Virus genome (UHGV): UHGV-0076394 | DNA length: 34,814 bases | Reading direction: 5' to 3' (one strand) | Source: a virus | Part shown: positions 3,088 through 34,764 of the stretch, one piece after another | Layout: every line of letters begins with the position of its first letter | Position numbering within the stretch: the stretch's first letter is position 1 | Translations under genes and position numbers: made by a program | Notes under the pieces: generated by a model | Told to the model about the DNA's origin: nothing | The model's database searches: none | What the model saw: only the letters and a program-made list of their open reading frames with translations

Positions 3088-3597
3088 ATGTTTGATTACC
3101 AAGTTTCCAAACATCCACATTTTGATGAAGCCTGTCGTGCATTTGCACTGCGCCACAATCTGGTGCAACTGGCAGAACGTGCAGGCATGAATGTGCAGAT
3201 TCTGCGGAACAAGCTGAACCCAGCTCAGCCTCATCTATTAACCGCACCAGAAATCTGGCTGCTTACCGATCTGACTGAAGATTCAACGCTGGTAGATGGT
3301 TTTCTGGCACAGATTCATTGTCTGCCATGTGTACCGATTAATGAGGTGGCAAAAGAGAAACTGCCACATTACGTCATGAGTGCAACCGCAGAGATCGGGC
3401 GTGTTGCTGCAGGTGCGGTATCTGGCGATGTAAAAACCAGTGCAGGTCGTCGTGATGCTATCAGCAGCATTAACTCTGTAACACGACTGATGGCGTTGGC
3501 TGCTGTTTCATTGCAGGCCCGTTTACAGGCTAACCCTGCGATGGCGAGTGCAGTTGATACCGTGACCGGCCTCGGTGCTTCATTCGGTTTGCTGTGA
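3088..3597 (+). CDS. cII: CII-like lysogeny establishment regulator (186 CII type)
   Basis: ATG at 3088 with AGAGG Shine-Dalgarno; 169 aa; position after apl; recalled similarity to 186 CII ([19 protein letters not shown]... [23 protein letters not shown]). Confidence 0.7.
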
Positions 3598-4888: not shown

Positions 4889-5742
4889 GCACCATCCTGA
4901 AATGGGCGGGAAATAAAACTGCCATAATGTCCGAACTGAAAAAACATCTTCCTGCTGGCCCGCGACTGGTTGAACCTTTCGCGGGTTCCTGTGCTGTGAT
5001 GATGGAGACGGATTATCCCAGCTATCTGGTTGCGGATATTAATCCTGATTTAATCAACCTCTATAAAAAGGTTGCCGCTGATTGTGAATCGTTTATATCT
5101 CGCGCCAGAGTTTTATTTGAGATCGCAAACAGGGAGGTGGCTTATTACAACATAAGGCAGGAGTTTAATTACTCAACTGAAATTACTGATTTCATGAGAG
5201 CGGTATATTTCCTGTATCTCAATCGTCACGGTTACCGTGGTTTATGTCGCTATAACAAGAGCGGGCATTTCAACATTCCCTACGGTAATTATAAAAATCC
5301 GTATTTCCCTGAAAAAGAAATTCGCGCATTTGCAGAAAAGGCCCAGCGAGCAACGTTTATCTGCGCCAGCTTTGATGAAACGCTGGCGATGTTGAAGGCG
5401 GGGGATGTGGTGTATTGCGATCCGCCGTATGACGGTACGTTTTCCGGCTATCACACTGACGGCTTCACTGAAGATGACCAGTATCACCTGGCATCTGTTC
5501 TTGAACATCGGTCATCAGAAGGACATCCGGTCATTGTTTCTAACAGTGACACATCCCTGATCCGTTCGCTGTATCGCAATTTTACTCACCACTACATCAA
5601 GGCAAAACGCAGCATCGGTGTGGCAGCTGGCGAGGGTAAATCAGCAACAGAAATCATTGCTGTTTCCGGGCCGCGCTGCTGGGTGGGATTTGATTATTCG
5701 CGTGGCGTGGATAGTTCTGCCGTGTACGGAGTACGTGCATGA
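4885..5742 (+). CDS. dam: DNA adenine methyltransferase (Dam-like, N6-adenine, D12 class)
   Basis: Start at the internal ATG 4885 (GGAGG Shine-Dalgarno; ATGA overlap with the upstream stop); N-terminal LKWAGNK, AdoMet-binding EPFAGS and catalytic DPPY motifs. Confidence 0.85.
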
Positions 5743-8153
5743 GTCATGCCGATATGAACAACTGCTGCGGCTTTAACGAAGCTGCCGCATCGTTCTCATG
5801 GAACAGCCCGAAAAAGGCCATTAACCCTTATCTGGACCCGGTGGAAGTTGCGCCGGTTTCTACGCTTTCAAACCTGATCACTCTGTACGCTGCCGATAAC
5901 GAGCAGGAACAGCTGCGCCGTGAGGCGCTGAGTGATCAGGTTTGGGAGCGTTATTTCTTTAATGAATCCCGTGATCCTGTCCAGCGCGAAATGGAACAGG
6001 ATAAGCTCATTAGTCGGGCAAAGCTGGCGCATGAGCAGCAGCGTTTTAATCCGGATATGGTCATTCTGGCGGACGTCAACGCCCAGCCTTCCCATATCAG
6101 CAAGCCGCTGATGCAACGTATTGAATACTTCAGCAGCCTGGGCAGGCCAAAGGCTTATTCCCGCTATTTACGTGAGACGATTAAGCCATGTCTGGAACGA
6201 CTGGAGCATGTACGCGACAGTCAGCTATCTGCATCTTTTCGCTTTATGGCAAGCCATGAAGGGCTGGACGGCCTGCTGATCCTGCCTGAAATGAGTCAGG
6301 ATCAGGTGAAACGCCTGTCCACCCTGGTAGCTGCGCATATGAGTATGTGCCTTGATGCCGCTTGTGGCGATTTGTATGCCACCGATGACGTTAAGCCAGA
6401 AGAAATCCGCAATACATGGGAAAGGGTGGCAGCGGAAACCCTGCGTCTGGATGTCATCCCGCCTGCGTTTGAGCAACTCCGTCGGAAAAGAAACCGCCGT
6501 AAACCCGTGCCCTATGAACTCATTCCGGGTTCGCTGGCGCGTATGTTGTGCGCCGACTGGTGGTATCGGAAATTATGGAAGATGCGTTGCGAATGGCGGG
6601 AAGAGCAGTTGCGTGCAGTCTGCCTTGTCAGCAAAAAAGCATCTCCTTATGTCAGCTATGAAGCCGTGATGCATAAACGTGAGCAGCGCCGTAAGTCGCT
6701 GGAGTTTTTCCGTTCTCATGAACTGGTGAACGAAGACGGCGACACGCTGGACATGGAGGATGTGGTAAACGCCAGCAGCAGCAACCCAGCGCATCGCCGC
6801 AATGAGATGATGGCCTGTGTTAAAGGTCTGGAGCTTATCGCGGAAATGCGCGGTGACTGCGCCGTTTTCTACACCATCACCTGTCCGTCACGTTTCCATT
6901 CCACGCTAAATAACGGCAGGCCCAACCCAACCTGGACAAATGCGACGGTAAGACAAAGCAGTGATTATCTGGTCGGCATGTTTGCTGCATTTCGTAAGGC
7001 GATGCACAAAGCCGGATTGCGGTGGTATGGCGTGCGGGTGGCTGAGCCGCATCATGACGGTACAGTTCACTGGCACCTGTTGTGTTTTATGCGCAAAAAA
7101 GACCGCCGCACCATCACTGCATTACTGCGTAAGTTTGCCATCCGTGAAGACCGCGAGGAGCTGGGCAATAACACTGGGCCGCGCTTTAAGTCTGAGTTGA
7201 TTAACCCGCGCAAAGGTACGCCAACAAGCTACATCGCGAAATACATCAGTAAGAACATTGACGGGCGTGGTCTGGCTGGCGAGATCAGCAAGGAAACGGG
7301 GAAATCCCTGCGTGATAATGCTGAATACGTTAATGCCTGGGCGTCTCTGCATCGTGTTCAGCAATTCCGCTTCTTTGGCATTCCGGGGCGTCAGGCTTAC
7401 CGTGAACTGCGATTGCTGGCTGGTCAGGCGGCAAGGCAACAGGGGGACAAAAAAGCAGGTGCGCCGGTACTGGATAACCCGCGCCTTGATGCCATTCTGG
7501 CTGCTGCTGATGCTGGTTGTTTTGCCACCTACATCATGAAGCAGGGTGGCGTACTGGTTCCCCGCAAATATCACCTCATCAGAACTGCTTATGAAATCAA
7601 CGAAGAGCCGACCGCCTATGGCGATCACGGCATTCGTATTTATGGCATCTGGTCACCTATTGCAGAGGGCAAGATCTGCACTCATGCCGTGAAGTGGAAA
7701 ATGGTTCGTAAGGCCGTTGACGTTCAGGAGGCGGCAGCCGACCAGGGCGCTTGCGCCCCTTGGACTCGTGGCAATAACTGTCCCCTTGCTGAAAATTTGT
7801 ACCAACAAGGGAAAGACAAATCAGCTGATGGGGATACCAGAACGGATATCACCCGTATGGATGACAAGGAGTTGCACGATTACCTGCACAGTATGAACAA
7901 AAAAGAACGCCGGGAACTGGCTGCAAGGTTACGCCTGGTGAAACCGAAACGGCGTAGAGACTACAAACAGCGAATTACAGACCATCAACGACAGCAGCTC
8001 GTCTATGAACTGAAGTCCAGAGGATTTGATGGCAGCGAGAAAGAGGTCGATTTACTCCTTCGCGGCGGCAGCATTCCGTCAGGAGCAGGCCTGCGTATTT
8101 TCTATCGGAACCAGCGTTTGCAGGAAGATGATAAGTGGCGGAACCTGTATTAA
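5739..8153 (+). CDS. A: Replication initiation endonuclease (P2 gpA / 186 A family, rolling-circle initiator)
   Basis: 804 aa; ATGA overlap with dam; HxH metal-binding motif (VHWHLLCF) and Tyr-containing segment (YIAKYISK) typical of gpA-type nickases. Confidence 0.85.
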
Positions 8154-9123: not shown

Positions 9124-10242
9124 ATGTATCTTTTCAAGTATTACCGTCCGGACTTCTTCTTCGAGAAAGCTATTCGTTATAATGAATTATATTTTTCCGC
9201 TCCTGCGCAATTGAATGATCCCAATGATCTCAATATAGATTATCGCTTCGATAATAAATTGAAATTATGGGATATTTTATTGCGTTCTCCTTGCGATAAA
9301 TCCTATAAAAATTTGAGTCACATATTGGATTTGAGTAATTTGAAAATACATAAGGGATTGAATCGTATTTTTAGAGGAAAAAAAATAAAAAGTAGCATTG
9401 AGTCATTAGATAGCCTGTTTGACTCACACGTTGATGAGATACGTAAGATCATAGATGATGGTTTACTACCTATCAATGTGATTAATTCTGCTATTTATGG
9501 AAATATTCCTGAACCACGCCAATATTTGGTTTCACTTTGCGAGAACAGTATCAAAGAAAGGTTGTATAGGAAAATAGTTCCTGCAGTATTCAGTGTGTCA
9601 TTTTCAGCTAATGCGTTAGATCGTATGATGTGGGCGCATTATGCTGCTGGCTTTAGTGGTTGTGTTGTGATTTATGAAACGCAGGATTTTAATATTGATG
9701 GTATACCCTATACTGGAATGAAGCTAAGAGAAAATTTATTTTCATCAGATAAATTTAATTTTCCAGTTAAGCCAATAAAATATAGTAATCAGGCTAAAGA
9801 GGTTTCACTTCTAGACCCAAGCGCAAATGTTGCAGAGTTATTTTTAACTAAAAATAGATTTTGGAGATATGAAGCTGAATATCGAATGTTTATTCCGGAG
9901 GCAAATGCAGGAATAGGGAGTGAGCGGCATGTTCAAAGACGCGTAAATCGAAATATTGGACATATTTTTCATCATGATGCTAATGTTGTTAAAGGGATCA
10001 TTTTTGGTCCTAGAATGTGTGAAATGAAAAAAGAAAGCATATGGAATTGTATCAAGTCAAATATGGAGAATTCAAATTCAACAATATGTTATTTTTTTGA
10101 CTCTGAGTTATCAGCATCAGGAAAGATTACTATTTCAAAAGGGCAACGAGCGGAAAAAATGAAAAATTTCACTTTGTTCAGGAACAAGTTAAGTCAGACG
10201 GAAATGGCTAAAGTTTTGAAGGAAATTGGCATTACGAACTAA
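9124..10242 (+). CDS. DUF2971-like protein (372 aa), AT-rich accessory gene
   Basis: N-terminus MYLFKYYR...NELYFSAPAQLNDPNDL and internal MWAHYA / FWRYEAEYR motifs as recalled for DUF2971; strongly AT-rich compared with flanking phage genes. Confidence 0.6.
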   Translation: MYLFKYYRPDFFFEKAIRYNELYFSAPAQLNDPNDLNIDYRFDNKLKLWDILLRSPCDKSYKNLSHILDLSNLKIHKGLNRIFRGKKIKSSIESLDSLFDSHVDEIRKIIDDGLLPINVINSAIYGNIPEPRQYLVSLCENSIKERLYRKIVPAVFSVSFSANALDRMMWAHYAAGFSGCVVIYETQDFNIDGIPYTGMKLRENLFSSDKFNFPVKPIKYSNQAKEVSLLDPSANVAELFLTKNRFWRYEAEYRMFIPEANAGIGSERHVQRRVNRNIGHIFHHDANVVKGIIFGPRMCEMKKESIWNCIKSNMENSNSTICYFFDSELSASGKITISKGQRAEKMKNFTLFRNKLSQTEMAKVLKEIGITN

Positions 10243-10472: not shown

Positions 10473-12212
10473 ATGGAATTGCACGCATATACTAGAACCA
10501 TATCAGAATTACTTTCTGTTAATAGAAAATATGTTGTTCCAAGATTTCAACGCGAATATTCTTGGGTAAAAGAACAAATTAATGAGCTTTGGTACGATGT
10601 AATATCTAATATAAAATTAGAGAGTGATTTCACATATTCTAATAATGAGTATTTTATTGGTTCTTTAGTTTTGGTTGGAGATGAAACAGGAAGGGAGATG
10701 CAAATAGTTGATGGTCAGCAACGACTTACAACTCTTACAATTTTTCTTTCCGTTTTATGCGAGGCGTTCAAATCAAACAATCAATCAGATTTAGCGTCTG
10801 CCCTATTTGAAAATTATATTGAAGGTCGTGATGATGATGGTAAGAAATTCTTTAAATTAATAAATGAAACGCCTAAACCTTTTTTTCAGAAAAATATCCA
10901 GCATATTAATAAGGCAGATGACATCCCACAGACACAAGAAGAGCGAAATCTCTTGTCAGCATATAAAGAAATTACATCGTTAGCCTCAAAGGAAAAGTTG
11001 GAAAAATATTTTTCAGTAGAAATTAATACTGAGGATAATTATTCCAGTGTATTAAAGGCAATTAGGGATCAGATTTTAAGATTCCTAAAGATAATTTTCA
11101 TTACTGTTAATGAAGAGGACGAGGCGTATACAATATTTGAAACATTAAATGCTAGAGGGATGAATTTAAGTTTTGTAGATTTAATCAAAAATAAATTATT
11201 TAAAGCGTTAAATGACCCACATCCAAATGATGATGCAAAAGATAATTGGAAGGCTATACGTACTACTTTAATGCAAAGAAATGGTGTAGGGACTTTTGAG
11301 AATTACATGAGGCACTGGTGGGTGTCGAAGTATGCTTATGTGAGCAATGAAAATCTTTATAAATCCTTTATTGGCAAATGGCGTAAGGGGGAAATTAATC
11401 CGGCAACCTTTATTGACGAATTGAAACAGGATGCCGAATTGTATGTACGCTTGTCATCTCCTTTGGAGAGTGATTATCCACAAATGGAAGACAAACAGTT
11501 ATTTCATTCGTTGAATGCAATTAGGCTATTTGGTATAACACAGTGTAGACCTTTTTTATTAGCCTTACTAAAGGCGAAGCAGCAAAAGAGATTACGTCAA
11601 TGTGATCTTTTAAAAGCAGTTAAATATATTGAAAATTTTCATTTTGTATTTAATGCGGTATGTTCATTAAGACCGTCAGGGATAGAAGGAGCATATTCTA
11701 AGGCCGCAAGATCTATAAATTCACCAAATGCTACAAAAGCAACTAATGGAACAACAATTGACCAGTTATGTATGTTGTTGAGTAATCGCAAGCCGGAAAT
11801 TTCTGTATTTACTGAACATTTTAGGGATATATTGTTTACTGATGACAACTCCAAACAAAAAAGATTAGTTCAATATATTATAAATAAATTTGAAATGGCC
11901 CGTCATAATGGAGATGAGTATCGTCCTAATTCTATCTCTTTAGAACATGTAATGCCTCAAAGTGCTGGCGACGATAAGGAAATAGGAATGGTTGGAAATA
12001 TAATCCCCCTGTCAAAAGAACTTAATGAGCAAGCTGGTGATAAATCATTGGCACAAAAGCTTTCTATCTATTCTCAATCGGAGTTTAGATTGACAGAAGA
12101 GTTTGTTAGTGAACTTGAAACCATTTACCATAATGAATGGAATCTCCAGTCTATTATTCAGAAGACGGATAGGATGGCTGGTGAGGCTTATATGATTATT
12201 TGGAGTCATTAA
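10473..12212 (+). CDS. DUF262/DUF1524 two-domain nuclease (GmrSD-like type IV restriction family)
   Basis: N-terminal DUF262 signatures VPRFQREYSW and DGQQRLTTL; C-terminal DUF1524-like His-Me segment SLEHVMPQS...GNIIPLSKELN; AT-rich. Confidence 0.75.
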   Translation: MELHAYTRTISELLSVNRKYVVPRFQREYSWVKEQINELWYDVISNIKLESDFTYSNNEYFIGSLVLVGDETGREMQIVDGQQRLTTLTIFLSVLCEAFKSNNQSDLASALFENYIEGRDDDGKKFFKLINETPKPFFQKNIQHINKADDIPQTQEERNLLSAYKEITSLASKEKLEKYFSVEINTEDNYSSVLKAIRDQILRFLKIIFITVNEEDEAYTIFETLNARGMNLSFVDLIKNKLFKALNDPHPNDDAKDNWKAIRTTLMQRNGVGTFENYMRHWWVSKYAYVSNENLYKSFIGKWRKGEINPATFIDELKQDAELYVRLSSPLESDYPQMEDKQLFHSLNAIRLFGITQCRPFLLALLKAKQQKRLRQCDLLKAVKYIENFHFVFNAVCSLRPSGIEGAYSKAARSINSPNATKATNGTTIDQLCMLLSNRKPEISVFTEHFRDILFTDDNSKQKRLVQYIINKFEMARHNGDEYRPNSISLEHVMPQSAGDDKEIGMVGNIIPLSKELNEQAGDKSLAQKLSIYSQSEFRLTEEFVSELETIYHNEWNLQSIIQKTDRMAGEAYMIIWSH

Positions 12213-21028: not shown

Positions 21029-21895
21029 TTACTTTTTACTGATAAATGGATTCCTATCAATCCATGAGTCCCAGTTTATATAATTGTCATCAAATCCTAT
21101 GAATTTCATTAGTACAAGTGGCACCAGTAAATTCAAATTTGATGAGTAATCTTGAATTTCAATTTTGCCATCTGAGTTTTTTTCATCAAGATAGGCAATG
21201 TATTTACCATTGTGGAACAGCGAGTGACGGAGTTTGCAGTAATGCATAATGTTTCTTTGAGCTAATGTATGTCCTGTTTTTTCGACATTAAAACCATATT
21301 CTTTTAAAACCTGAGTGATTATTTGTGGTGTTTTGGCAGGGGAGTAGTCATTTTTAATAAATCTGCAAAGTGCTTCTAGTGCCGAGAATAATAAATAATA
21401 TCTGACGTCGATATAATTTATTGAGTCGCGGAAAGCTAGCATTGATTTAAAAAATGATGTTCTAAAGGCATCTTGTTTTAGCATGGCTTTACTATTTAGT
21501 TTTTCCATGGCTAAGCAAATAAAATTTTCTCGGCTGTTTGGTGCAAAATAATCTTCCATGATGATAATGCCCGCACCCTTATCTCTTTTTTTGTCAAGCT
21601 TTTTGGGTAGAGATGGTTTGAAATTGAAAGGGGTTTCATCATTTTCAAGTTCTCCTGAAATGATTACATTTTTTTGTTCAATAAAACTAAGAACTGCTTG
21701 TAAATCAAAAATAAGCTGCTGTTGAGTGGCGTAGTTATTCGAGTTTGGTTTGAAAAAACCAGTGAGGATGTACCTATCATTAGCCCAGCCATTTTTTTTT
21801 AACTCACTCCATGAACTGAAAATAGGAGTTAACTCACCACCGTCAAATGTGATTTTTTTAGTGAAATTAAATCCATAAATTGCGATTTGTGTCAT
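21029..21895 (-). CDS. AT-rich accessory protein (289 aa) with R-x4-H motif; candidate HEPN/Abi-like defence protein
   Basis: Minus-strand gene inserted between S and V; ATG at 21895 preferred over 21943; contains CKLRHSLFHNG (R-x4-H); markedly AT-rich. Confidence 0.55.
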   Translation of the reverse strand: MTQIAIYGFNFTKKITFDGGELTPIFSSWSELKKNGWANDRYILTGFFKPNSNNYATQQQLIFDLQAVLSFIEQKNVIISGELENDETPFNFKPSLPKKLDKKRDKGAGIIIMEDYFAPNSRENFICLAMEKLNSKAMLKQDAFRTSFFKSMLAFRDSINYIDVRYYLLFSALEALCRFIKNDYSPAKTPQIITQVLKEYGFNVEKTGHTLAQRNIMHYCKLRHSLFHNGKYIAYLDEKNSDGKIEIQDYSSNLNLLVPLVLMKFIGFDDNYINWDSWIDRNPFISKK

Positions 21896-21924
21896 CTTAA
21901 ATACCTTAGAAATTGTTTCTCTTT

Positions 21925-21942
21925 TGTATGGTTCTCCATACA
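21925..21942. promoter_or_regulatory. TGT-N12-ACA dyad (TGTATGG-ttct-CCATACA), candidate late promoter pV activator site
   Basis: Perfect 7-bp inverted repeat conforming to TGT-N12-ACA about 50-65 nt upstream of the V start codon, in the short region shared with the divergent cargo gene. Confidence 0.45.
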
Positions 21943-21990
21943 TACGCTCTGTATTACATCACTCTACCCGGTTGTGCAAGGATCGCTCTC

Positions 21991-23820: not shown

Positions 23821-24418
23821 TCTGCTGTCACCGGGTTCAACGCCACTGGAGCGCCGACTGGCGCAGACCTGTCGCGGGATTTCTGAACTGCAGGTGCCAC
23901 TGCGTGACTTGTGGGATCCGGCAACCTGTCCGGTCAGTTTCCTGCCTTATCTCGCCTGGGCGTTCTCTGTGGATCACTGGGACGAGGACTGGACGGAAAG
24001 CGTCAAACGCCAGGTGGTGAAGGATGCTTTTTATATTCATCAGCACAAAGGAACCACCAGTGCCGTGCGGCGGGTGGTGGAGCCGTTCGGCTTTCTGATC
24101 CGCATTATTGAGTGGTGGCAGACCGGAGAAGCACCCGGCACGTTTCGCCTGGATATCGGCGTGCAGGACCAGGGCATCACTGAAGATACCTATCTGGAAC
24201 TTGAGCGACTGATAAGCGATGCCAAACCATGTAGCCGTCACATGATCGGCATGTCTATCAACCTGCAGACTAGCGGCCCGCATTGGGTGGGGGCAGCCAG
24301 TTATCTTGGCGAAGAAATCACGATCTATCCGTATATCAACGAAACAATTATTTCCGGCGGCACCGCGCATGAGGGCGGGGCAGTCCACGTTATTGACACA
24401 GTGAGAGTGAATCCATGA
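23813..24418 (+). CDS. I: Baseplate protein I (P2 gpI family)
   Basis: 201 aa; overlaps J stop and H start; conserved order. Confidence 0.8.
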   Translation: MNSLLSPGSTPLERRLAQTCRGISELQVPLRDLWDPATCPVSFLPYLAWAFSVDHWDEDWTESVKRQVVKDAFYIHQHKGTTSAVRRVVEPFGFLIRIIEWWQTGEAPGTFRLDIGVQDQGITEDTYLELERLISDAKPCSRHMIGMSINLQTSGPHWVGAASYLGEEITIYPYINETIISGGTAHEGGAVHVIDTVRVNP

Positions 24419-26049
24419 GCACAAAATTTTATACCCTGCTGACGGATATTGGCGCGGCGAAACTTGCCAGCGCCGCCGCGCTCGGTGTGCCGCTAAAAAT
24501 TACCCATATGGCGGTAGGCGATGGCGGCGGAACATTGCCAACGCCGGACGCAAAGCAGACTGCACTGGTAAATGAGAAACGCCGGGCTGCGCTGAATATG
24601 CTCTATATTGACCCGCAGAACAGCAGCCAGATTATTGCTGAACAGGTGATCCCTGAAAACGAGGGCGGTTGGTGGATACGTGAAGTGGGCCTGTTTGATG
24701 AGTCAGGGGCATTGATTGCCGTGGGCAACTGCCCGGAAAGCTATAAGCCGCAACTGGCTGAAGGCAGCGGGCGTACCCAGACCGTACGGATGGTGCTGAT
24801 TACCAGCAGCACGGACAATATCACCCTGAAAATCGACCCTGCCGTCGTGCTGGCAACCCGCAAGTATGTGGATGATAAGGCACTGGAGCTGAAGGTGTAC
24901 GTGGATGACCTGATGGCAAAACATCTTGCCGCACCGGACCCTCATTCACAGTATGCACCCAAAGAAAGTCCGACGTTTACCGGGACACCCAAAGCGCCAA
25001 CGCCAGCAGCAGGGAATAACACCACGCAGATTGCGACCACCGCGTTTGTTCAGGCGGCACTGACGTCCCTGATTAATGGTGCGCCAGCCACGCTGGACAC
25101 GCTGAAAGAAATTGCCGCAGCCATAAACAATGACCCGAAATTCAGTACCACCATTAACAATGCGCTGGCACTGAAAGCGCCGCTGTCGAGTCCGGCACTT
25201 ACCGGAACGCCAACAGCACCTACAGCGGCACAGTCGGTCAACAATACACAGATTGCTACCACGGCATTTGTGAAATCGGCGATTGCGGCAATGGTGGGTT
25301 CTGCACCTGCGGCACTGGATACACTGAACGAACTGGCGGCGGCGCTGGGGAATGACCCGAACTTTGCCACGACAATGCTTAATGCACTGGCAGGTAAACA
25401 ACCGCTGGACAATACGCTTACCAATTTGAGTGGAAAGGATGTAGCTGGTCTTCTCGCATACCTTGGTTTGGGAGAAGGCTCTGCATTACCTGTTGGTGTC
25501 CCTGTTCCGTGGCCTTCAGCCACTCCGCCAACAGGCTGGCTGAAATGCAATGGTGCGGCTTTTTCTGCTGAAGAATACCCGGAACTGGCAAAGGCTTACC
25601 CGACAAATAAATTGCCAGATTTACGTGGTGAGTTTATTCGTGGCTGGGATGACGGGCGAGGGATTGATGGGGGGCGCATACTTCTCAGTTGTCAGAGTTT
25701 TGCTTTCCAGGACCATGCGCACGCTCTGCCAACCGGAGTGGGTAATCCGTCATACCAGATGGAAAGCGATATCTATACGGTTTTCAACGATGAACCAGAA
25801 ATACCCAGTGCGGTCCTGAGTCCATCGTCGTCAGGAACATCATGGGACGCAACCAGTAGGGCAGACAAGGTAATCCTTTATCGCAAGGACCTTTCACCAA
25901 CAGGTAATAACAACGAAATAGCGCCCGGATTACCACCATTCAGGACTTACAGGGCATCGACCTCAGACGGTGTTACTCATCCGTCCGTGTACGCATCTGA
26001 AACCCGTCCGCGCAACATTGCATTTAACTACATCGTGAGGGCTGCATAA
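24415..26049 (+). CDS. H: Tail fibre protein (P2 gpH family) with a constant N-terminal part and a switchable C-terminal receptor-binding part
   Basis: 544 aa; N-terminus like gpH; internal tandem repeats; C-terminal conserved fibre-tip block LPDLRGEFIRGWDDGRGIDGGR; a recombination site lies at codons 346-354. Confidence 0.85.
   Translation: MSTKFYTLLTDIGAAKLASAAALGVPLKITHMAVGDGGGTLPTPDAKQTALVNEKRRAALNMLYIDPQNSSQIIAEQVIPENEGGWWIREVGLFDESGALIAVGNCPESYKPQLAEGSGRTQTVRMVLITSSTDNITLKIDPAVVLATRKYVDDKALELKVYVDDLMAKHLAAPDPHSQYAPKESPTFTGTPKAPTPAAGNNTTQIATTAFVQAALTSLINGAPATLDTLKEIAAAINNDPKFSTTINNALALKAPLSSPALTGTPTAPTAAQSVNNTQIATTAFVKSAIAAMVGSAPAALDTLNELAAALGNDPNFATTMLNALAGKQPLDNTLTNLSGKDVAGLLAYLGLGEGSALPVGVPVPWPSATPPTGWLKCNGAAFSAEEYPELAKAYPTNKLPDLRGEFIRGWDDGRGIDGGRILLSCQSFAFQDHAHALPTGVGNPSYQMESDIYTVFNDEPEIPSAVLSPSSSGTSWDATSRADKVILYRKDLSPTGNNNEIAPGLPPFRTYRASTSDGVTHPSVYASETRPRNIAFNYIVRAA
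24967..25404 (+). repeat. Tandem duplication inside H encoding two ~73-aa tail-fibre repeats (NNTQIATTAFV...DTL.E.AAA..NDP.F)
   Basis: Residues ~185-257 and ~258-330 of H are clearly homologous to each other. Confidence 0.6.
25451..25476. other. Left inversion crossover site (gix/hix-like) inside H
   Basis: 26-bp sequence whose reverse complement TTCTCCCAAACCAAGGTATGCGAGAA shares the half-site plus core TTCTCCCAAACCAA with the site at 27137-27162; 15 bp (TTGGTTTGGGAGAAG) are identical in inverted orientation. Confidence 0.6.
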
Positions 26050-26654
26050 TGGCGAAAGCAAAATTAAACAGTGCGTTTATTGCCACCGTGGCAGGAGAAA
26101 TCACTGTGTACAACTACCGGGGCGACACCCGCGAATACATATCCTCATCGGTTGAGTATCTGCCTGTGGGGGTGGGTATTCCTGCCAATTCCTGTACCGA
26201 TGCGCCCGGCACACATAAGGCTGGTTATGCAATCTGCCGTTCTGCAGATTTTAACTCATGGGAATATGTGCCAGACCATCGCGGTGAAATTGTCTATGGC
26301 ATCGAAACGGGGGAATCAAAAGAAATTACTGTGCCGGGGGATTACCCTGAAAATACGACCACTTTTGCCCCATTAACGCCATACGATAAATGGGATGGTG
26401 AGAAATGGGTAACAGATACCGAGGCACAGCATAGCGCCGCAGTAGATGCAGCAGAAGTACAGCGCCAGTCTCTGATTGATGCTGCTATGGCTTCCATCAG
26501 TCTGATTCAGCTGAAATTGCAGGCCGGACGTAAACTGACGCAGGCAGAAACAACCCGCCTTAACGCTGTGCTGGATTACATTGACGCGGTGACGGCAATA
26601 GATACCAGCACCGCGCCTGATATTATTTGGCCTGTATTCCCTGAGACTGATTAA
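26049..26654 (+). CDS. G: Tail fibre assembly protein (P2 gpG / Tfa family)
   Basis: 201 aa; start overlaps the H stop; position of P2 gene G. Confidence 0.75.
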   Translation: MAKAKLNSAFIATVAGEITVYNYRGDTREYISSSVEYLPVGVGIPANSCTDAPGTHKAGYAICRSADFNSWEYVPDHRGEIVYGIETGESKEITVPGDYPENTTTFAPLTPYDKWDGEKWVTDTEAQHSAAVDAAEVQRQSLIDAAMASISLIQLKLQAGRKLTQAETTRLNAVLDYIDAVTAIDTSTAPDIIWPVFPETD

Positions 26655-26844
26655 CCTCAATCAGTATTGGTTCGCCTTTCTCATTAATTGTTAGCTCCAT
26701 GCCCTGAGGAATTTCTGTCATAGTAAAAAACCAGTTGTCCTCCGGTAATTCAATAGCCCCGGTCACGTCATGAAGACCGGGGATTACTTCAGTCAAAGTA
26801 ACTGGATTAAACAGGCGCACAATAAACCCTCCATGAAAAAGCAT
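26623..26844 (-). CDS. Putative alternative tail-fibre assembly/chaperone protein (G')
   Basis: Small minus-strand ORF (start taken as the internal ATG at 26844) immediately downstream of the alternative fibre C-terminus, convergent with and overlapping the 3' end of G. Confidence 0.3.
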   Translation of the reverse strand: MLFHGGFIVRLFNPVTLTEVIPGLHDVTGAIELPEDNWFFTMTEIPQGMELTINEKGEPILIEVNQSQGIQAK

Positions 26845-27136
26845 TTGGTGATGGTCTGCCGTCGTACATCTGGCAGCGGACATAAAAACCGGTATTAGTG
26901 ACCCGGTCATCCACGATCATTGAAACGTGAACATTATTAGATGTGCCCACATAATCCGTTCCTATTCTTTCCGCTATGCTGATAAAACGTGAAAGCTTAG
27001 GTAGCGCAATTGGGTAAACGACTTTAGCCAGTCCATTATCATTAGATCCACCGGTTCCAAATACTTCTATTGCACCATCTGACCAGCGTACCCATGCACC
27101 ATTGGCATTAGCTCCTCGCTGAATGACATATCTGGC
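26807..27136 (-). CDS. Alternative tail-fibre C-terminal segment (Hv'), silent in the present orientation
   Basis: Minus-strand ORF 26807..27190; its codons 11-18 (FLNVGLGE) are encoded by the inversion site; after inversion H codons 1-354 would join in frame to ARYVIQRGANANGAWVRW...; a separate translation start is unlikely. Confidence 0.55.
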   Translation of the reverse strand, partial: ARYVIQRGANANGAWVRWSDGAIEVFGTGGSNDNGLAKVVYPIALPKLSRFISIAERIGTDYVGTSNNVHVSMIVDDRVTNTGFYVRCQMYDGRPSPNAFSWRVYCAPV

Positions 27137-27162
27137 TTCTCCCAAACCAACGTTTAAGAAAA
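27137..27162. other. Right inversion crossover site (gix/hix-like) TTCTCCCAAACC-AA-CGTTTAAGAAAA
   Basis: Close to the hix/gix consensus (TTCTTGAAAACC-AA-GGTTTTTGATAA); 50 bp upstream of the invertase gene, as in Mu gin and P1 cin. Confidence 0.6.
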
Positions 27163-27217
27163 TGCAGAGATTACGGCTAACTGGCATCATCCCAGATTTT
27201 TATTCAGGGGATTGATC

Positions 27218-27775
27218 ATGCTTATTGGCTATGTACGCGTGTCAACAAATGACCAGAACACCGATTTGCAACGTAATGCACTGAACTGCGCGGGATGTGA
27301 GCGAATTTTTGAGGATAAAATCAGTGGCACTAAGTCCGACAGACCGGGGCTAAAAAAACTGCTCAGGACACTATCGGCAGGAGACACGCTGGTCGTCTGG
27401 AAGCTGGACAGGTTGGGGCGCAGTATGCGGCATCTTGTTACGCTGATAGAAGAGTTGCGCCAGCGTGGCGTGAATTTCCGAAGCCTGACTGACAGTATTG
27501 ATACCAGTACCCCAATGGGCCGTTTCTTTTTTCATGTCATGGGTGCCCTGGCTGAAATGGAACGCGAACTGATAGTTGAACGCACTATGGCAGGGCTGGC
27601 TGCAGCTCGTGCCAAAGGCAGAGTAGGTGGACGCCGTCCTAAGTTGACCACCGAACAGTGGGCACAGATTGGACGTTTACTCGAGGCCGGAGAATCAAGA
27701 CAGCGTATTGCACTGATTTTTGACGTGGGCGTTTCTACCATTTATAGAAAATTTCCGGCGAATAAGAGCAATTAA
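27218..27775 (+). CDS. Serine DNA invertase (Gin/Hin/Cin/Pin family)
   Basis: N-terminus MLIGYVRVSTNDQNTDLQRNAL with the catalytic Ser in the YVRVS motif; C-terminal HTH; about 186 aa. Confidence 0.9.
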   Translation: MLIGYVRVSTNDQNTDLQRNALNCAGCERIFEDKISGTKSDRPGLKKLLRTLSAGDTLVVWKLDRLGRSMRHLVTLIEELRQRGVNFRSLTDSIDTSTPMGRFFFHVMGALAEMERELIVERTMAGLAAARAKGRVGGRRPKLTTEQWAQIGRLLEAGESRQRIALIFDVGVSTIYRKFPANKSN

Positions 27776-27832
27776 TCGCCCTGAATCAGCATTCTTTTGA
27801 TTTTTCCTGTAAGCGGACAAATACCGTCATTT

Positions 27833-27850
27833 TGTGTGAATAACGGCACA
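27833..27850. promoter_or_regulatory. TGT-N12-ACA late-promoter activator element upstream of FI (pF-like)
   Basis: TGTgtgaataacggcACA centred about 85 nt upstream of the FI start codon. Confidence 0.45.
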
Positions 27851-27926
27851 ACTGCGATTAGCTGTTTGTCAGGCACAATCACTTCAACATAGGGCGAAGC
27901 CTAATCCAATCAGGAGGTTCGCCACT

Positions 27927-33185: not shown

Positions 33186-33667
33186 TGATGGTGCTGGGAT
33201 TGTACGTGTTTATGCTGCGCACCGTTCCGTATCAGGAACTGCAGTATCAACGCAGCTGGCGACATGCGGCAAACAGTCGGGTAAACCGACGTCCGTCCAC
33301 GCAGTTTCTGGGACCGGAAAACGACATGCTGACGCTTTCCGGTGTTCTTATGCCGGAGATAACAGGCGGCAGGCTGTCGTTGCTGGCACTGGAGCAGATG
33401 GCAGAACAGGGGAAAGCATGGCCCCTGATTGAAGGCAGCGGCACGATTTACGGCATGTATGTGATTGAGGGACTGAATCAGACTAAAACGGAGTTTTTCC
33501 GCGACGGTATGCCGCGCCGGATTGAGTTCACCCTGTCGCTCAAACGAGTGGATGAATCCCTGTCCGATATGTTCGGTGATCTCAGTGCGCAACTGAATAA
33601 TCTGCAGGACACGGCAACGTCTGCCTTAAGCGATATCAGTAAAACGGTGGGAGGGCTGCTGTCGTGA
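33182..33667 (+). CDS. U: Tail protein U (P2 gpU family)
   Basis: 161 aa; MMMVLGLYVFMLRTVPYQELQYQRSWRH...NSRVNRRP... very close to recalled gpU; ATGA overlap with T. Confidence 0.9.
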   Translation: MMMVLGLYVFMLRTVPYQELQYQRSWRHAANSRVNRRPSTQFLGPENDMLTLSGVLMPEITGGRLSLLALEQMAEQGKAWPLIEGSGTIYGMYVIEGLNQTKTEFFRDGMPRRIEFTLSLKRVDESLSDMFGDLSAQLNNLQDTATSALSDISKTVGGLLS

Positions 33668-34764
33668 ATTTCAGCTCTGAACTGCTTAACAAAGGCAACA
33701 AAACTCCCGCATTCAGCATCAGTATTGAGGGCAGGGATATCACCACTGTGCTGGATAACCGCCTGATGAGTTTGACGCTGACGGATAACCGGGGCTTTGA
33801 AGCGGACCAGCTTGATCTGGAGCTGGACGACGCTGACGGAAAAATCGTGCTGCCGCGCCGTGGTGCGGTCATTACGCTGGCGCTGGGCTGGAAGGGGCAG
33901 CCGCTTTTCCCTAAAGGGGCATTCACAGTGGACGAGATTGAACACACTGGCGCACCGGACCGCCTGACTATCCGGGCGCGAAGTGCTGATTTTCGGGAAA
34001 CGCTGAATACCCGCCGTGAAAAATCGTGGCATAAGACCACCGTCGGGGAAGTGGTGAAGGAAATAGCCGCGCGGCACAAGCTGAAGATGGCACTGGGTAA
34101 AGACCTGTCAGATAAACCCGTGGAGCATATAGACCAGACTAATGAGAGTGACGGCAGTTTTCTGATGCGGCTGGCGCGACAGTACGGTGCCATCGCGTCG
34201 GTGAAAAATGGCAATCTGTTATTCATCCGGCAGGGGCAGGGCAAAAGCGCCACTGGTAAACCTCTGCCAGTGATCACTATCACACGCAAGGACGGCGACA
34301 GTCACCGATTTACCCTGGCAGATCGCGGAGCCTACACGGGCGTAATTGCCAGCTGGTTGCATACCCGCGAACCTGCGAAGAAAGAAAGCACCACGGTGAA
34401 GCGTAAGCGCAGAACTAAGAAGCAGAAGAAAGAGCCAGAAGCGAAGCAGGGCGATTACCTGGTGGGTACGGATGAAAACGTGCTGGTACTTAATCGCACT
34501 TATGCCAACCGGAGCAACGCCGAACGAGCGGCGAAAATGCAGTGGGAACGCCTGCAACGCGGCGTTGCGTCATTTTCGCTACAACTGGCAGAAGGGCGGG
34601 CAGATCTCTACACGGAAATGCCAGTGAAAGTCAGTGGCTTTAAACAGCCGATAGATGATGCGGAATGGACCATTACGACTCTGACGCATACCGTCAGTCC
34701 GGATAACGGTTTTACGACCAGTCTGGAGCTTGAAGTGAGGATTGATGATTTCGAAATGGAATGA
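33664..34764 (+). CDS. D: Tail protein D (P2 gpD family, late tail/baseplate hub-related)
   Basis: 366 aa; probable GTG start overlapping the U stop; conserved last tail gene. Confidence 0.85.
   Translation: MNFSSELLNKGNKTPAFSISIEGRDITTVLDNRLMSLTLTDNRGFEADQLDLELDDADGKIVLPRRGAVITLALGWKGQPLFPKGAFTVDEIEHTGAPDRLTIRARSADFRETLNTRREKSWHKTTVGEVVKEIAARHKLKMALGKDLSDKPVEHIDQTNESDGSFLMRLARQYGAIASVKNGNLLFIRQGQGKSATGKPLPVITITRKDGDSHRFTLADRGAYTGVIASWLHTREPAKKESTTVKRKRRTKKQKKEPEAKQGDYLVGTDENVLVLNRTYANRSNAERAAKMQWERLQRGVASFSLQLAEGRADLYTEMPVKVSGFKQPIDDAEWTITTLTHTVSPDNGFTTSLELEVRIDDFEME

Follow-up and report, generated by a model that had tools for sequence, protein, structure and literature searches.

A two-state tail-fibre inversion switch of the Mu/P1 type in the P2-like prophage UHGV-0076394

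Behind the tail-fibre gene H of the viral genome UHGV-0076394, a second set of tail-fibre sequences lies silent on the opposite strand, next to a gene for a serine DNA invertase. This arrangement raises the question of whether the intervening DNA is turned around so that one fibre gene can carry either of two ends, and, if so, what kind of system does the turning. The stretch analysed, called the window here, is 34.8 kb long. The locus is very probably a two-state programmed inversion of the Gin/Cin/Pin/Hin family (Fis-dependent serine invertases), situated in the G-FI interval of a P2/186-like prophage. Cassettes of this sort, in which a Gin-family invertase turns tail-fibre sequences around, entered the textbooks with Mu and P1; the present switch, in a P2-like prophage of E. 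coli, is of this classic type, an ordinary and well-known kind of system. A preliminary description had proposed a cassette like Mu G or P1 C on a P2-like tail, which sequence and comparative evidence bear out. For this switch, the evidence establishes both crossover sites, the fusion in frame, the invertase's family, and repeated inversion at exactly these sites in clonal lineages.

The tail genes of the carrier stand in the P2-like (Peduoviridae) order V-W-J-I-H-G ... FI-FII-E-E'-T-U-D, and the P2/186 gene set is complete from integrase to D, as judged by the RefSeq annotation of a near-identical record. Pfam places Phage_tail_fib on the P2-type N-terminus of H and Phage_GPD on D. The features of the switch itself are collected in Table 1.

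Table 1. Features of the invertible tail-fibre locus, in window coordinates.
Feature	Position	Strand	Description
H, as now assembled	24415..26049	+	544 aa; from the ORF list; Pfam Phage_tail_fib 1-150 (4.5e-65)
H, constant part	24415-25476	+	codons 1-354
Site L	25451..25476	+	26 bp, TTCTCGCATACC TT GGTTTGGGAGAA; inside H; codes ...LAYLGLGE
Invertible segment, core to core	25463..27150	.	1,688 bp, both 15-bp cores counted; exact reverse complement in strain 64, flanks unchanged
Tip A (expressed)	25477-26049	+	codons 355-544; tail-collar domain, Pfam Collar 361-408 (1.3e-14)
G, tail-fibre assembly protein of tip A	26049..26654	+	201 aa; Pfam Caudo_TAP 2.1e-30
Silent ORF, partner of tip B	26623..26820	-	65 aa; GTG start overlaps the stop of tip B
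Tip B (silent)	26807..27136	-	109 codons, ARYVIQRGAN...RVYCAPV*; read after inversion only
Site R	27137..27162	+	26 bp, TTCTCCCAAACC AA CGTTTAAGAAAA; ends 55 bp upstream of the invertase start codon
Serine DNA invertase	27218..27775	+	185 aa; outside the invertible segment; Pfam Resolvase 6.5e-53 and HTH_7 1.5e-15
Candidate enhancer region	27218..27420	+	5' part of the invertase gene; placed by analogy with gin/hin/cin only

Two inverted 26-bp sites resembling hix and gix, with an identical 15-bp core, had been described at the ends of the segment, and a repeat finder confirms both the coordinates and the core. It returns inverted arms of 27 nt at 25451-25477 and 27136-27162, 81% complementary and 1658 nt apart. 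Within them the exact common core, TTGGTTTGGGAGAAG, occupies 25463-25477 on the plus strand and 27136-27150 on the minus strand, extending 1 nt beyond the 26-bp site on its inner side. Each site consists of imperfect 12-nt half-sites flanking a 2-bp centre, which is TT in both when they are read in the same sense, and the distance from centre to centre is 1,686 bp. An exact inverted repeat of at least 15 nt within 24400-27900 arises in only 1 of 300 Markov shuffles. When the window was scanned with TTCTCNNAAACC for both halves, at a threshold of at least 15 of 20 matches, sites L and R alone were found, with 0.2 expected from shuffles. The core likewise has no copies in the window beyond these two, so that neither the core search nor the half-site scan of the 34.8 kb reveals the extra crossover sites of a shufflon-like system. 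This 12-2-12 layout recurs in the gix sites of the Mu genome; site R aligns with Mu gixR, and its position relative to the invertase gene matches that of gixR relative to gin.

The invertase places the system in the Gin/Hin class, as the preliminary description had it. It is 75.7% identical to Mu Gin and 77.3% identical to P1 Cin, and its gene adjoins site R. Against the Mu Gin structures 3uj3 and 4m6f it aligns over its full length (residues 1-184, E 1e-93), compared with an E value of 4e-34 for gamma-delta resolvase. The catalytic Ser9 is present, as are Arg42, Lys46, Lys47, Arg50, and Gln150/Arg153/Leu154. In Hin, residues K47, K/R48, K/R51, Q151, R154, and L155 are uniquely conserved among invertases that depend on Fis and an enhancer (PMC3798978). 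The corresponding residues here are K46, K47, R50, Q150, R153, and L154, as in Gin and Cin. Two phage invertases that were aligned with them and are less closely related lack this contact motif. The adjacent invertase would be the catalyst of inversion, with a predicted dependence on Fis and an enhancer.

Inversion by this family requires Fis and negative supercoiling, and a recombinational enhancer with two Fis sites acts in cis; in gin, hin, and cin, this Fis-bound enhancer lies near the 5' end of the recombinase gene, within it. The first 201 nt of the present gene are 70% identical to Mu gin at the nucleotide level, an identity for which coding constraint accounts. Conservation at synonymous sites is flat along the gene, with no peak over codons 16-45, and two convincing Fis cores could not be placed by eye in its 5' part. 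A search of the DNA from site R to the start codon returned no σ70-like promoter from which the invertase could be expressed.

The segment between the sites carries two opposed cassettes. The expressed one comprises tip A, which matches PHROG tail collar fibre families, and G, which matches phrog_105 (tail fiber assembly) at 1.7e-96. The second was predicted to supply H with an alternative end by exact fusion of codons 1-354 to the silent minus-strand segment. Inverting the window in silico at the central dinucleotides does yield an open reading frame of 463 aa, whose residues 1-354 (...GLLAYLGLGE) are common to the 544-aa H and which then continues from ARYVIQRGAN to RVYCAPV and the stop codon. 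A random frame would stay open for these 109 codons with p ~0.005. Moreover, E. coli strain 64, in which the segment is flipped, has precisely the predicted product; its annotation there is that of a phage tail protein of 463 aa. The free-standing "hypothetical protein" that RefSeq annotates in place of the silent tip is an artefact.

Tip B matches the C-terminus of phrog_2557 (5.3e-14) and, weakly and below the cut-off, Pfam Gp53-like_C (0.0032). With the expressed H proteins of Erwinia aeris and Xenorhabdus khoisanae it shares 61% identity, at their C-terminus. An AlphaFold2 model of tip B built without an alignment reached a pLDDT of 40, and one of its 65-aa partner a pLDDT of 51; profile searches of PDB sequences with both families gave chance matches only (E >0.5).

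The 65-aa partner bears on the claim that inversion replaces tip and assembly gene by an alternative pair. An alternative tip and a partner gene are indeed present; the partner, at 65 aa and with no match in Pfam or NCBIfam, does not hold up as an assembly gene of the G/lambda-Tfa type. It matches positions 1-66 of the 145 in phrog_5400, and it has 123 homologues across Enterobacterales, nearly all of 57-73 aa. Its relationship to Caudo_TAP proteins is confined to the N-terminal ~55 residues of some of them, as in P0166 and P0173, to whose N-termini it is homologous. The idea that it is a truncated form of the 147-aa Tfa found in phages of the 500465-1 and T22 type was rejected, because the two have no similarity and the length of ~60 aa is conserved across genera. 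Giant repeat proteins that turned up in an exhaustive HMMER search with this ORF were set aside as compositional or repeat artefacts, because the Pfam domains in them are of mixed kinds (Spiralin, DUF285, He_PIG, DUF5979).

The gene neighbourhoods of the homologues are informative. In Erwinia aeris, the P2-type tail cluster runs I - H - small ORF - sheath, with the small ORF in the slot of gpG, and tip B with the small ORF is the only fibre module there. Therefore, tip B and the 65-aa ORF form a real fibre module. The small ORF accompanies tips of the tip B type in other genera too. It belongs to a conserved, uncharacterised family of ~60 aa and is probably a minimal fibre assembly or accessory protein that has only the N-domain. 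A further proposal, which we make tentatively and with nearly as much belief as doubt, is that the family consists of minimal Tfa N-terminal-domain proteins (~60 aa, lacking a Pfam model and a solved relative) that replace gpG for gp53-like tips on P2-type tails and tailocins of Enterobacterales. In that case inversion would exchange one fibre-maturation system for another that works by a different mechanism, and not the tip alone. If the small ORF is the sole maturation factor, tip B and this ORF would make a compact, portable receptor-binding module that could aid the engineering of P2-type phages and tailocins.

Does the segment in fact invert? A mixture of orientations had been anticipated, and public genomes contain both. 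Among 5,426 complete E. coli genomes, the cassette is in the orientation of the window in 36 and flipped in 20. Strains 61 and 64, sister isolates which come from the same study and carry the prophage at the same chromosomal coordinates, have flanks that are 100% identical and a reversed segment, with no other difference. The window inverted in silico differs from strain 64 by 1 SNP in 8,612 bp. In strain 64 the outer half-sites, that of site L included, are unmoved, and the breakpoints fall inside the 15-bp core. Both states also occur within further clonal sets (DG342-2 and DG351-2 versus DG341-1; 82.0311 versus 82.0312; M7424 and M00057 versus M11957). E. coli W NC_017664 and B-766, which we take to be the same strain, have opposite orientations, and an IS3 within the segment has been carried along. 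In drafts of Pantoea, Xenorhabdus, and Intestinirhabdus, the segment is a contig of 1.2-1.7 kb with the repeat core at both ends. The cassette explains such breaks in draft genomes as well as the differences at this locus between assemblies of clonal strains, the laboratory strain E. coli W among them.

These comparisons bear on two ways in which the orientations might have arisen without site-specific recombination now at work. Inverted repeats can in principle support inversion by RecA-dependent homologous recombination, and assemblers choose one path through a bubble, so that the flipped state could be an assembly artefact. This is so improbable as to be nearly negligible. The identity between the repeats is only 15 bp, far below the length of efficient RecA substrates, and the repeats are built on the 12-2-12 plan of gix sites and lie next to a homologue of Gin. 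As for assembly, a flipped path is obtained only if the reads support both junctions, and this in itself means inversion. Alternatively, the switch might be a fossil, the orientations in the databases being old fixed alternatives or the outcome of recombination between different prophages. Dead switches do exist, since in the related phage NC_041848 the right site looks damaged and the invertase gene is shorter. It is nonetheless very unlikely that this one is dead: the window has intact copies of the two sites, the two cassettes, and the invertase, and strains 61 and 64, several clonal sets, and the two E. coli W assemblies differ in orientation alone.

If the switch is active, the enzyme that flips it could still be encoded elsewhere in the cell, for example by another prophage, with the adjacent gene dispensable or inactive. 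Gin, Cin, Pin, and Hin cross-complement, and flipping by another invertase of the family is possible for that reason. Several such cassettes coexist in many E. coli genomes, with up to 8-11 matching places per genome, and an opposed tip/assembly cassette of Xenorhabdus khoisanae lacks an adjoining invertase gene. Yet the adjacent invertase is of full length, retains all catalytic and Fis-contact residues, and occupies the canonical position by site R, and the unit of site R and invertase is conserved across cassettes with different tips. Flipping in trans is thus an unlikely explanation, and the invertase next to site R is the better candidate.

With that invertase as the recombinase, its dimers would bind both 26-bp sites and bring them into synapsis; cutting at the central TT/AA dinucleotide, rotation, and religation would then reverse the 1.69-kb segment. 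The N-terminal 354 codons of H and the late promoter would remain outside. In the present orientation, H ends in the collar-domain tip, with the Caudo_TAP assembly gene G behind it. After inversion, its end is the gp53-like tip of 109 residues, the 65-aa ORF comes next, and tip A with G turns into the silent antisense cassette. Given a two-state inversion, a lysogen culture is expected to be a mixture that releases particles with one tip or the other and therefore with two receptor specificities. By the precedent of Mu and P1, the two tips would give different host ranges.

The switch might have ceased to serve phage host range and instead diversify a domesticated, tailocin-like particle, or have no phenotype in a defective prophage. 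Strains 61 and 64 carry the prophage with an IS1 and a frameshifted gpD, and P2-type remnants in Xenorhabdus, described as bacteriocin producers in work that PMC4272514 cites, carry the module of tip B and small ORF. The window, however, is a copy of the strain 61/64 prophage (99.95-99.98% identical) without the IS1 and without the 1-nt frameshift: gpD is unbroken at 366 aa and matches Phage_GPD, and the P2/186 gene set is full by the annotation of the near-identical record. We consider this alternative improbable and favour a host-range switch of a phage.

Among the closest relatives of the locus, one group shares its type of carrier and its place in the gene order, H-G-[silent cassette]-invertase-FI. 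These are the P2-like loci of EPEC E2348/69, Escherichia phages 500465-1 and Cartapus, and the "P2" phage from O157:H43 T22. Site R and the invertase are near-identical among annotated P2-like phages with an invertase, and the invertase of Cartapus has 99.5% protein identity. Unlike the present locus, 500465-1 and the T22 phage have an unrelated silent tip with a 147-aa assembly gene of the Caudo_TAP type. Inversion within clonal cultures has been shown by sequencing and PCR for the P2-like prophages of EPEC E2348/69 (Goldberg et al. 2014, PMC4272514). Programmed inversions repeatedly target tail-fibre genes (PMC9881135). With flipping of P2-like E. coli prophages already demonstrated experimentally, the locus adds little to biology.

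The e14 P segment with PinE and the Salmonella Hin/hix system share the recombinase family and the site architecture. Hin provides the mechanistic model (invertasome, Fis, and enhancer), and the contact residues defined in it are conserved here, but its gene lies inside its own segment and it flips a promoter rather than a coding end; e14, for its part, is a lambdoid remnant. Like Mu G/Gin and P1 C/Cin, the switch has a serine invertase (76-77% identical) just outside the segment by the right-hand site, two inverted 26-bp sites with the left one at the junction of the constant and variable parts of the fibre gene, and two opposed cassettes, each made up of a fibre tip and a partner gene. It differs in the length of the segment (1.69 kb versus 3 kb), in the central dinucleotide (TT versus TC), and in having a 65-aa ORF as one partner gene in place of a Tfa of ~175 aa. 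The constant part of its fibre gene spans 354 codons, compared with ~170 in Mu S by annotated boundaries, and the cassette, unlike those of Mu and P1, belongs to a P2/186-like prophage, in which it separates G from FI.

The switch lies on an inverted repeat, 25451-25477 and 27136-27162 (27 nt, 81% complementary, spacing 1658 nt), which a repeat finder returned as the single outstanding pair. It contains the exact 15-mer TTGGTTTGGGAGAAG, of which the window has just 2 copies, one per strand. The preliminary description of inverted, hix/gix-like 26-bp sites with a 15-bp identical core is thus confirmed. Each site consists of a 12-nt half-site, a dinucleotide, and a second 12-nt half-site, and the dinucleotide is TT in both when they are read in the same sense. 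When the entire window was scanned for half-sites, L and R were the only sites of this type (shuffles expect 0.2), and an exact inverted repeat of at least 15 nt within 24400-27900 arose in 1 of 300 Markov shuffles. In silico inversion at the central dinucleotides converts the 544-aa H into a 463-aa protein that keeps residues 1-354 (...LAYLGLGE) and then continues as ARYVIQRGAN...RVYCAPV; an open reading of that length is expected in about 0.5% of random frames. The proposed in-frame joining of H codons 1-354 to the silent minus-strand segment therefore holds.

Features of the invertible tail fibre locus
Feature	Position	Strand	Description
H	24415-26049	+	tail fibre
Site L, 26 bp	25451-25476		TTCTCGCATACC-TT-GGTTTGGGAGAA
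Tip A, 190 aa			tail-collar domain; followed by G
G	26049-26654	+	assembly gene
Small ORF, 65 aa	26623-26820	-	GTG start overlaps tip B stop
Tip B	26807-27136	-	silent alternative H end
Site R, 26 bp	27137-27162		TTCTCCCAAACC-AA-CGTTTAAGAAAA
Invertase	27218-27775	+	Resolvase and HTH_7 domains

The segment flips, both in this lineage and elsewhere. Strains 61 and 64, two complete E. coli genomes from one Swiss environmental study, carry the prophage at equal coordinates; they differ in the direction of the 1.69-kb segment, between flanks that are 100% identical. The window inverted in silico differs from strain 64 by 1 SNP in 8,612 bp, far from the switch. In this alignment the outer half-sites have not moved and identity spans core to core, the pattern predicted by cleavage at the central dinucleotide. 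When the 3.5-kb cassette in both orientations was searched against 5,426 complete E. coli genomes, 36 carried it as in the window and 20 carried it flipped. Both states occur within clonal sets: DG342-2 and DG351-2 versus DG341-1 (all records 5,067,659 bp), 82.0311 versus 82.0312, and M7424 and M00057 versus M11957. E. coli W reference genomes express the tip B orientation, and tip A is expressed in B-766, which we take to be the same strain; the records of E. coli W (NC_017664.1) and B-766 have identical annotated proteins and share an IS3 insertion. This IS3 (1625-2802 in NC_017664.1) lies inside the segment, between tip B and the small ORF, and moves with it. It shortens the small ORF, leaving 62 aa; both orientations of the segment are nonetheless found among assemblies of this strain.

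In drafts of Pantoea wallisii, Xenorhabdus santafensis, and Intestinirhabdus alba, the segment stands alone on a contig of 1.25-1.68 kb (1253, 1679, and 1600 bp), which is the whole invertible segment with both ends in the repeat core. Typical assembly k-mers exceed these repeats in length, so such breaks point to reads of both orientations. The ends of the Pantoea wallisii contig encode the same tip pair as the window, collar type and tip B type, so the pairing is widespread.

The alignment of the invertase with crystallised Mu Gin covers the full length (E 1e-93, against just 4e-34 for gamma-delta resolvase). Its protein identity is 75.7% with Gin and 77.3% with P1 Cin, rising to 99.5% with the counterpart in the P2-like phage Cartapus. 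Ser9 and Arg42 are conserved. Hin residues 47/48/51 (basic, helix B) and Q151/R154/L155 are reported to be uniquely conserved in Fis/enhancer-dependent invertases (McLean et al., PMC3798978); their counterparts here are K46, K47, and R50 and, for the Fis contact patch, Q150/R153/L154. Residue 114 is the wild-type Met, where crystallised Gin mutants have the Fis-independent Val. At the DNA level, synonymous-site conservation over seven invertase genes gave no regional peak indicative of an enhancer. The adjacent invertase is the obvious catalyst of inversion, though another member of the family could flip the segment through cross-complementation.

With the sites, frame, recombinase family, and repeated inversion at sites L and R established, the reaction of the adjacent invertase can be modelled on Mu, P1, and Hin. 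By that analogy, an invertasome containing Fis would assemble at an enhancer within the 5' portion of the invertase gene, and the TT/AA core would be cut before subunit rotation. A lysogen population would then be a mix of orientations, and the two tips may confer two host ranges.

Both cassettes are intact, and each is used as the expressed form in nature. G, downstream of tip A, encodes a standard Caudo_TAP (tail fibre assembly) protein. For tip B (109 aa), no Pfam match passes the threshold (Gp53-like_C, E 0.003); it does match phrog_2557 at the C-terminus of that family. RefSeq calls silent tip B (26807-27190, minus strand) a free-standing 127-aa 'hypothetical protein' with an ATG start beyond site R; silent tip A in strain 64 is likewise annotated alone, as a 207-aa 'phage tail protein'. 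Such entries are artefacts of annotating a gene whose end is invertible.

The 'alternative pair' of the preliminary description stands in substance, since tip B has a partner gene; the partner, however, is not G-type, but a small ORF resembling the N-domain of assembly proteins. It has no match in Pfam or NCBIfam, no detectable similarity to the co-resident G, and matches positions 1-66 of the 145-position phrog_5400. That it is a truncated gene was rejected, given a family of ~57-65-aa proteins and its context in Erwinia aeris and Xenorhabdus khoisanae. Members (60-70% identity) occur in Escherichia, Enterobacter, Salmonella, Citrobacter, Hafnia, Erwinia, and Xenorhabdus and share the invariant core RLFN..T.TEV...H....A..LP...W.F. 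The P2-type tail cluster of Erwinia aeris reads I - H (316 aa) - small ORF - sheath, with no Caudo_TAP gene and no invertase; its H shares 61% identity with tip B over the last 109 aa, and the gpG slot is filled by the small ORF. In Xenorhabdus khoisanae the tip B and small ORF pair is expressed and the Caudo_TAP cassette is silent. In an exhaustive HMMER search, proteins of 131-147 aa matched the small ORF over their N-terminal ~55 residues. In one protein (P0166; BLASTP 45% identity, E 1e-15) the remainder is Caudo_TAP (Pfam 3e-20), and another (P0173) aligns with an hhalign probability of 98.7. Judged from these similarities, the small ORF appears to be a minimal, N-domain-only relative of assembly proteins, in an uncharacterised family. 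The 3' ends of G and the small ORF overlap convergently by 32 nt (26623-26654). Conservation in the family alignment stops near residue 55, so the tail of the small protein is just translated antisense of G.

The P2-like phages 500465-1 and 'P2' from O157:H43 T22 have the same site R and invertase, but their silent tip is unrelated and is paired with a 147-aa Tfa. Invertase and site together are thus a conserved platform that has received different tip modules. In the latter (NC_041848.1, about 3480-3560), the invertase-side site carries a 16-bp insertion, GGTCTTCTCGCATACC, a copy of the left site's outer half, and the invertase gene is annotated shorter (495 bp); this switch may be scarred and inactive. 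In the P2-type cluster of Xenorhabdus khoisanae, no invertase gene was seen between fibre cassette and sheath gene, despite its silent, opposed Caudo_TAP cassette; where E. coli has the invertase, this cluster encodes a 275-aa protein (5599-6426) that combines DUF7823 and a Tad2-like domain (Thoeris anti-defence).

The window is a P2/186-like prophage, its gene content read from the RefSeq annotation of the 99.95-99.98% identical record of strain 61: integrase, CI, CII, replication, portal, terminase, capsid, lysis, R, S, V, W, J, I, H, and G before the cassette, and FI, FII, E, E', T, U, and D after it, between chromosomal rcdA and ybjL. This order places the switch between G and FI. Over 24400-27900 the window and strain 61 are 100% identical. 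No identical copy of the window was found among the complete E. coli genomes searched, the strain 61/64 prophage reaching 99.95-99.98%. The window and the strain 61 record are thus distinct: the window lacks the 776-bp IS1 of strains 61 and 64 at ~21180 (21176-21183) and has one extra base, which keeps gpD open (intact 366-aa ORF, 33664-34764; marked frameshifted in strain 61 by RefSeq). This IS1 is inserted in the 3' end of a 304-aa orphan ORF (21029-21943, minus strand) between S and V, the position of P2 orf30, with no match in Pfam or PADLOC. Two plus-strand cargo genes between the replication and portal genes, the P2 old/tin hotspot, match candidate anti-phage defence models: 9124-10242, PDC-S31 (DUF2971, E 1e-23), and 10473-12212, HEC-06/Orf5 (DUF262, E 1e-90).

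The mildly novel element of the locus is the small-ORF family alone. This type of switch is already documented in P2-like E. coli prophages: Goldberg et al. (PMC4272514) detected flipping, confirmed by PCR, in two such prophages of EPEC E2348/69; the first has two states, the second four. At programmed inversions, the enriched gene families listed by Milman et al. (PMC9881135) include tail fibre proteins, 'phage tail protein I' neighbours, and tail fibre assembly proteins. The gix sites of phage Mu, read from its genome (TTATCCAAAACC-TC-GGTTTACAGGAA and the partner site), equal sites L and R in layout, and gixR aligns with site R at an equal distance upstream of the invertase gene; their central dinucleotide is TC, whereas that of L and R is TT. 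In kind, the locus matches Mu G/Gin, P1 C/Cin, and e14 P/Pin.
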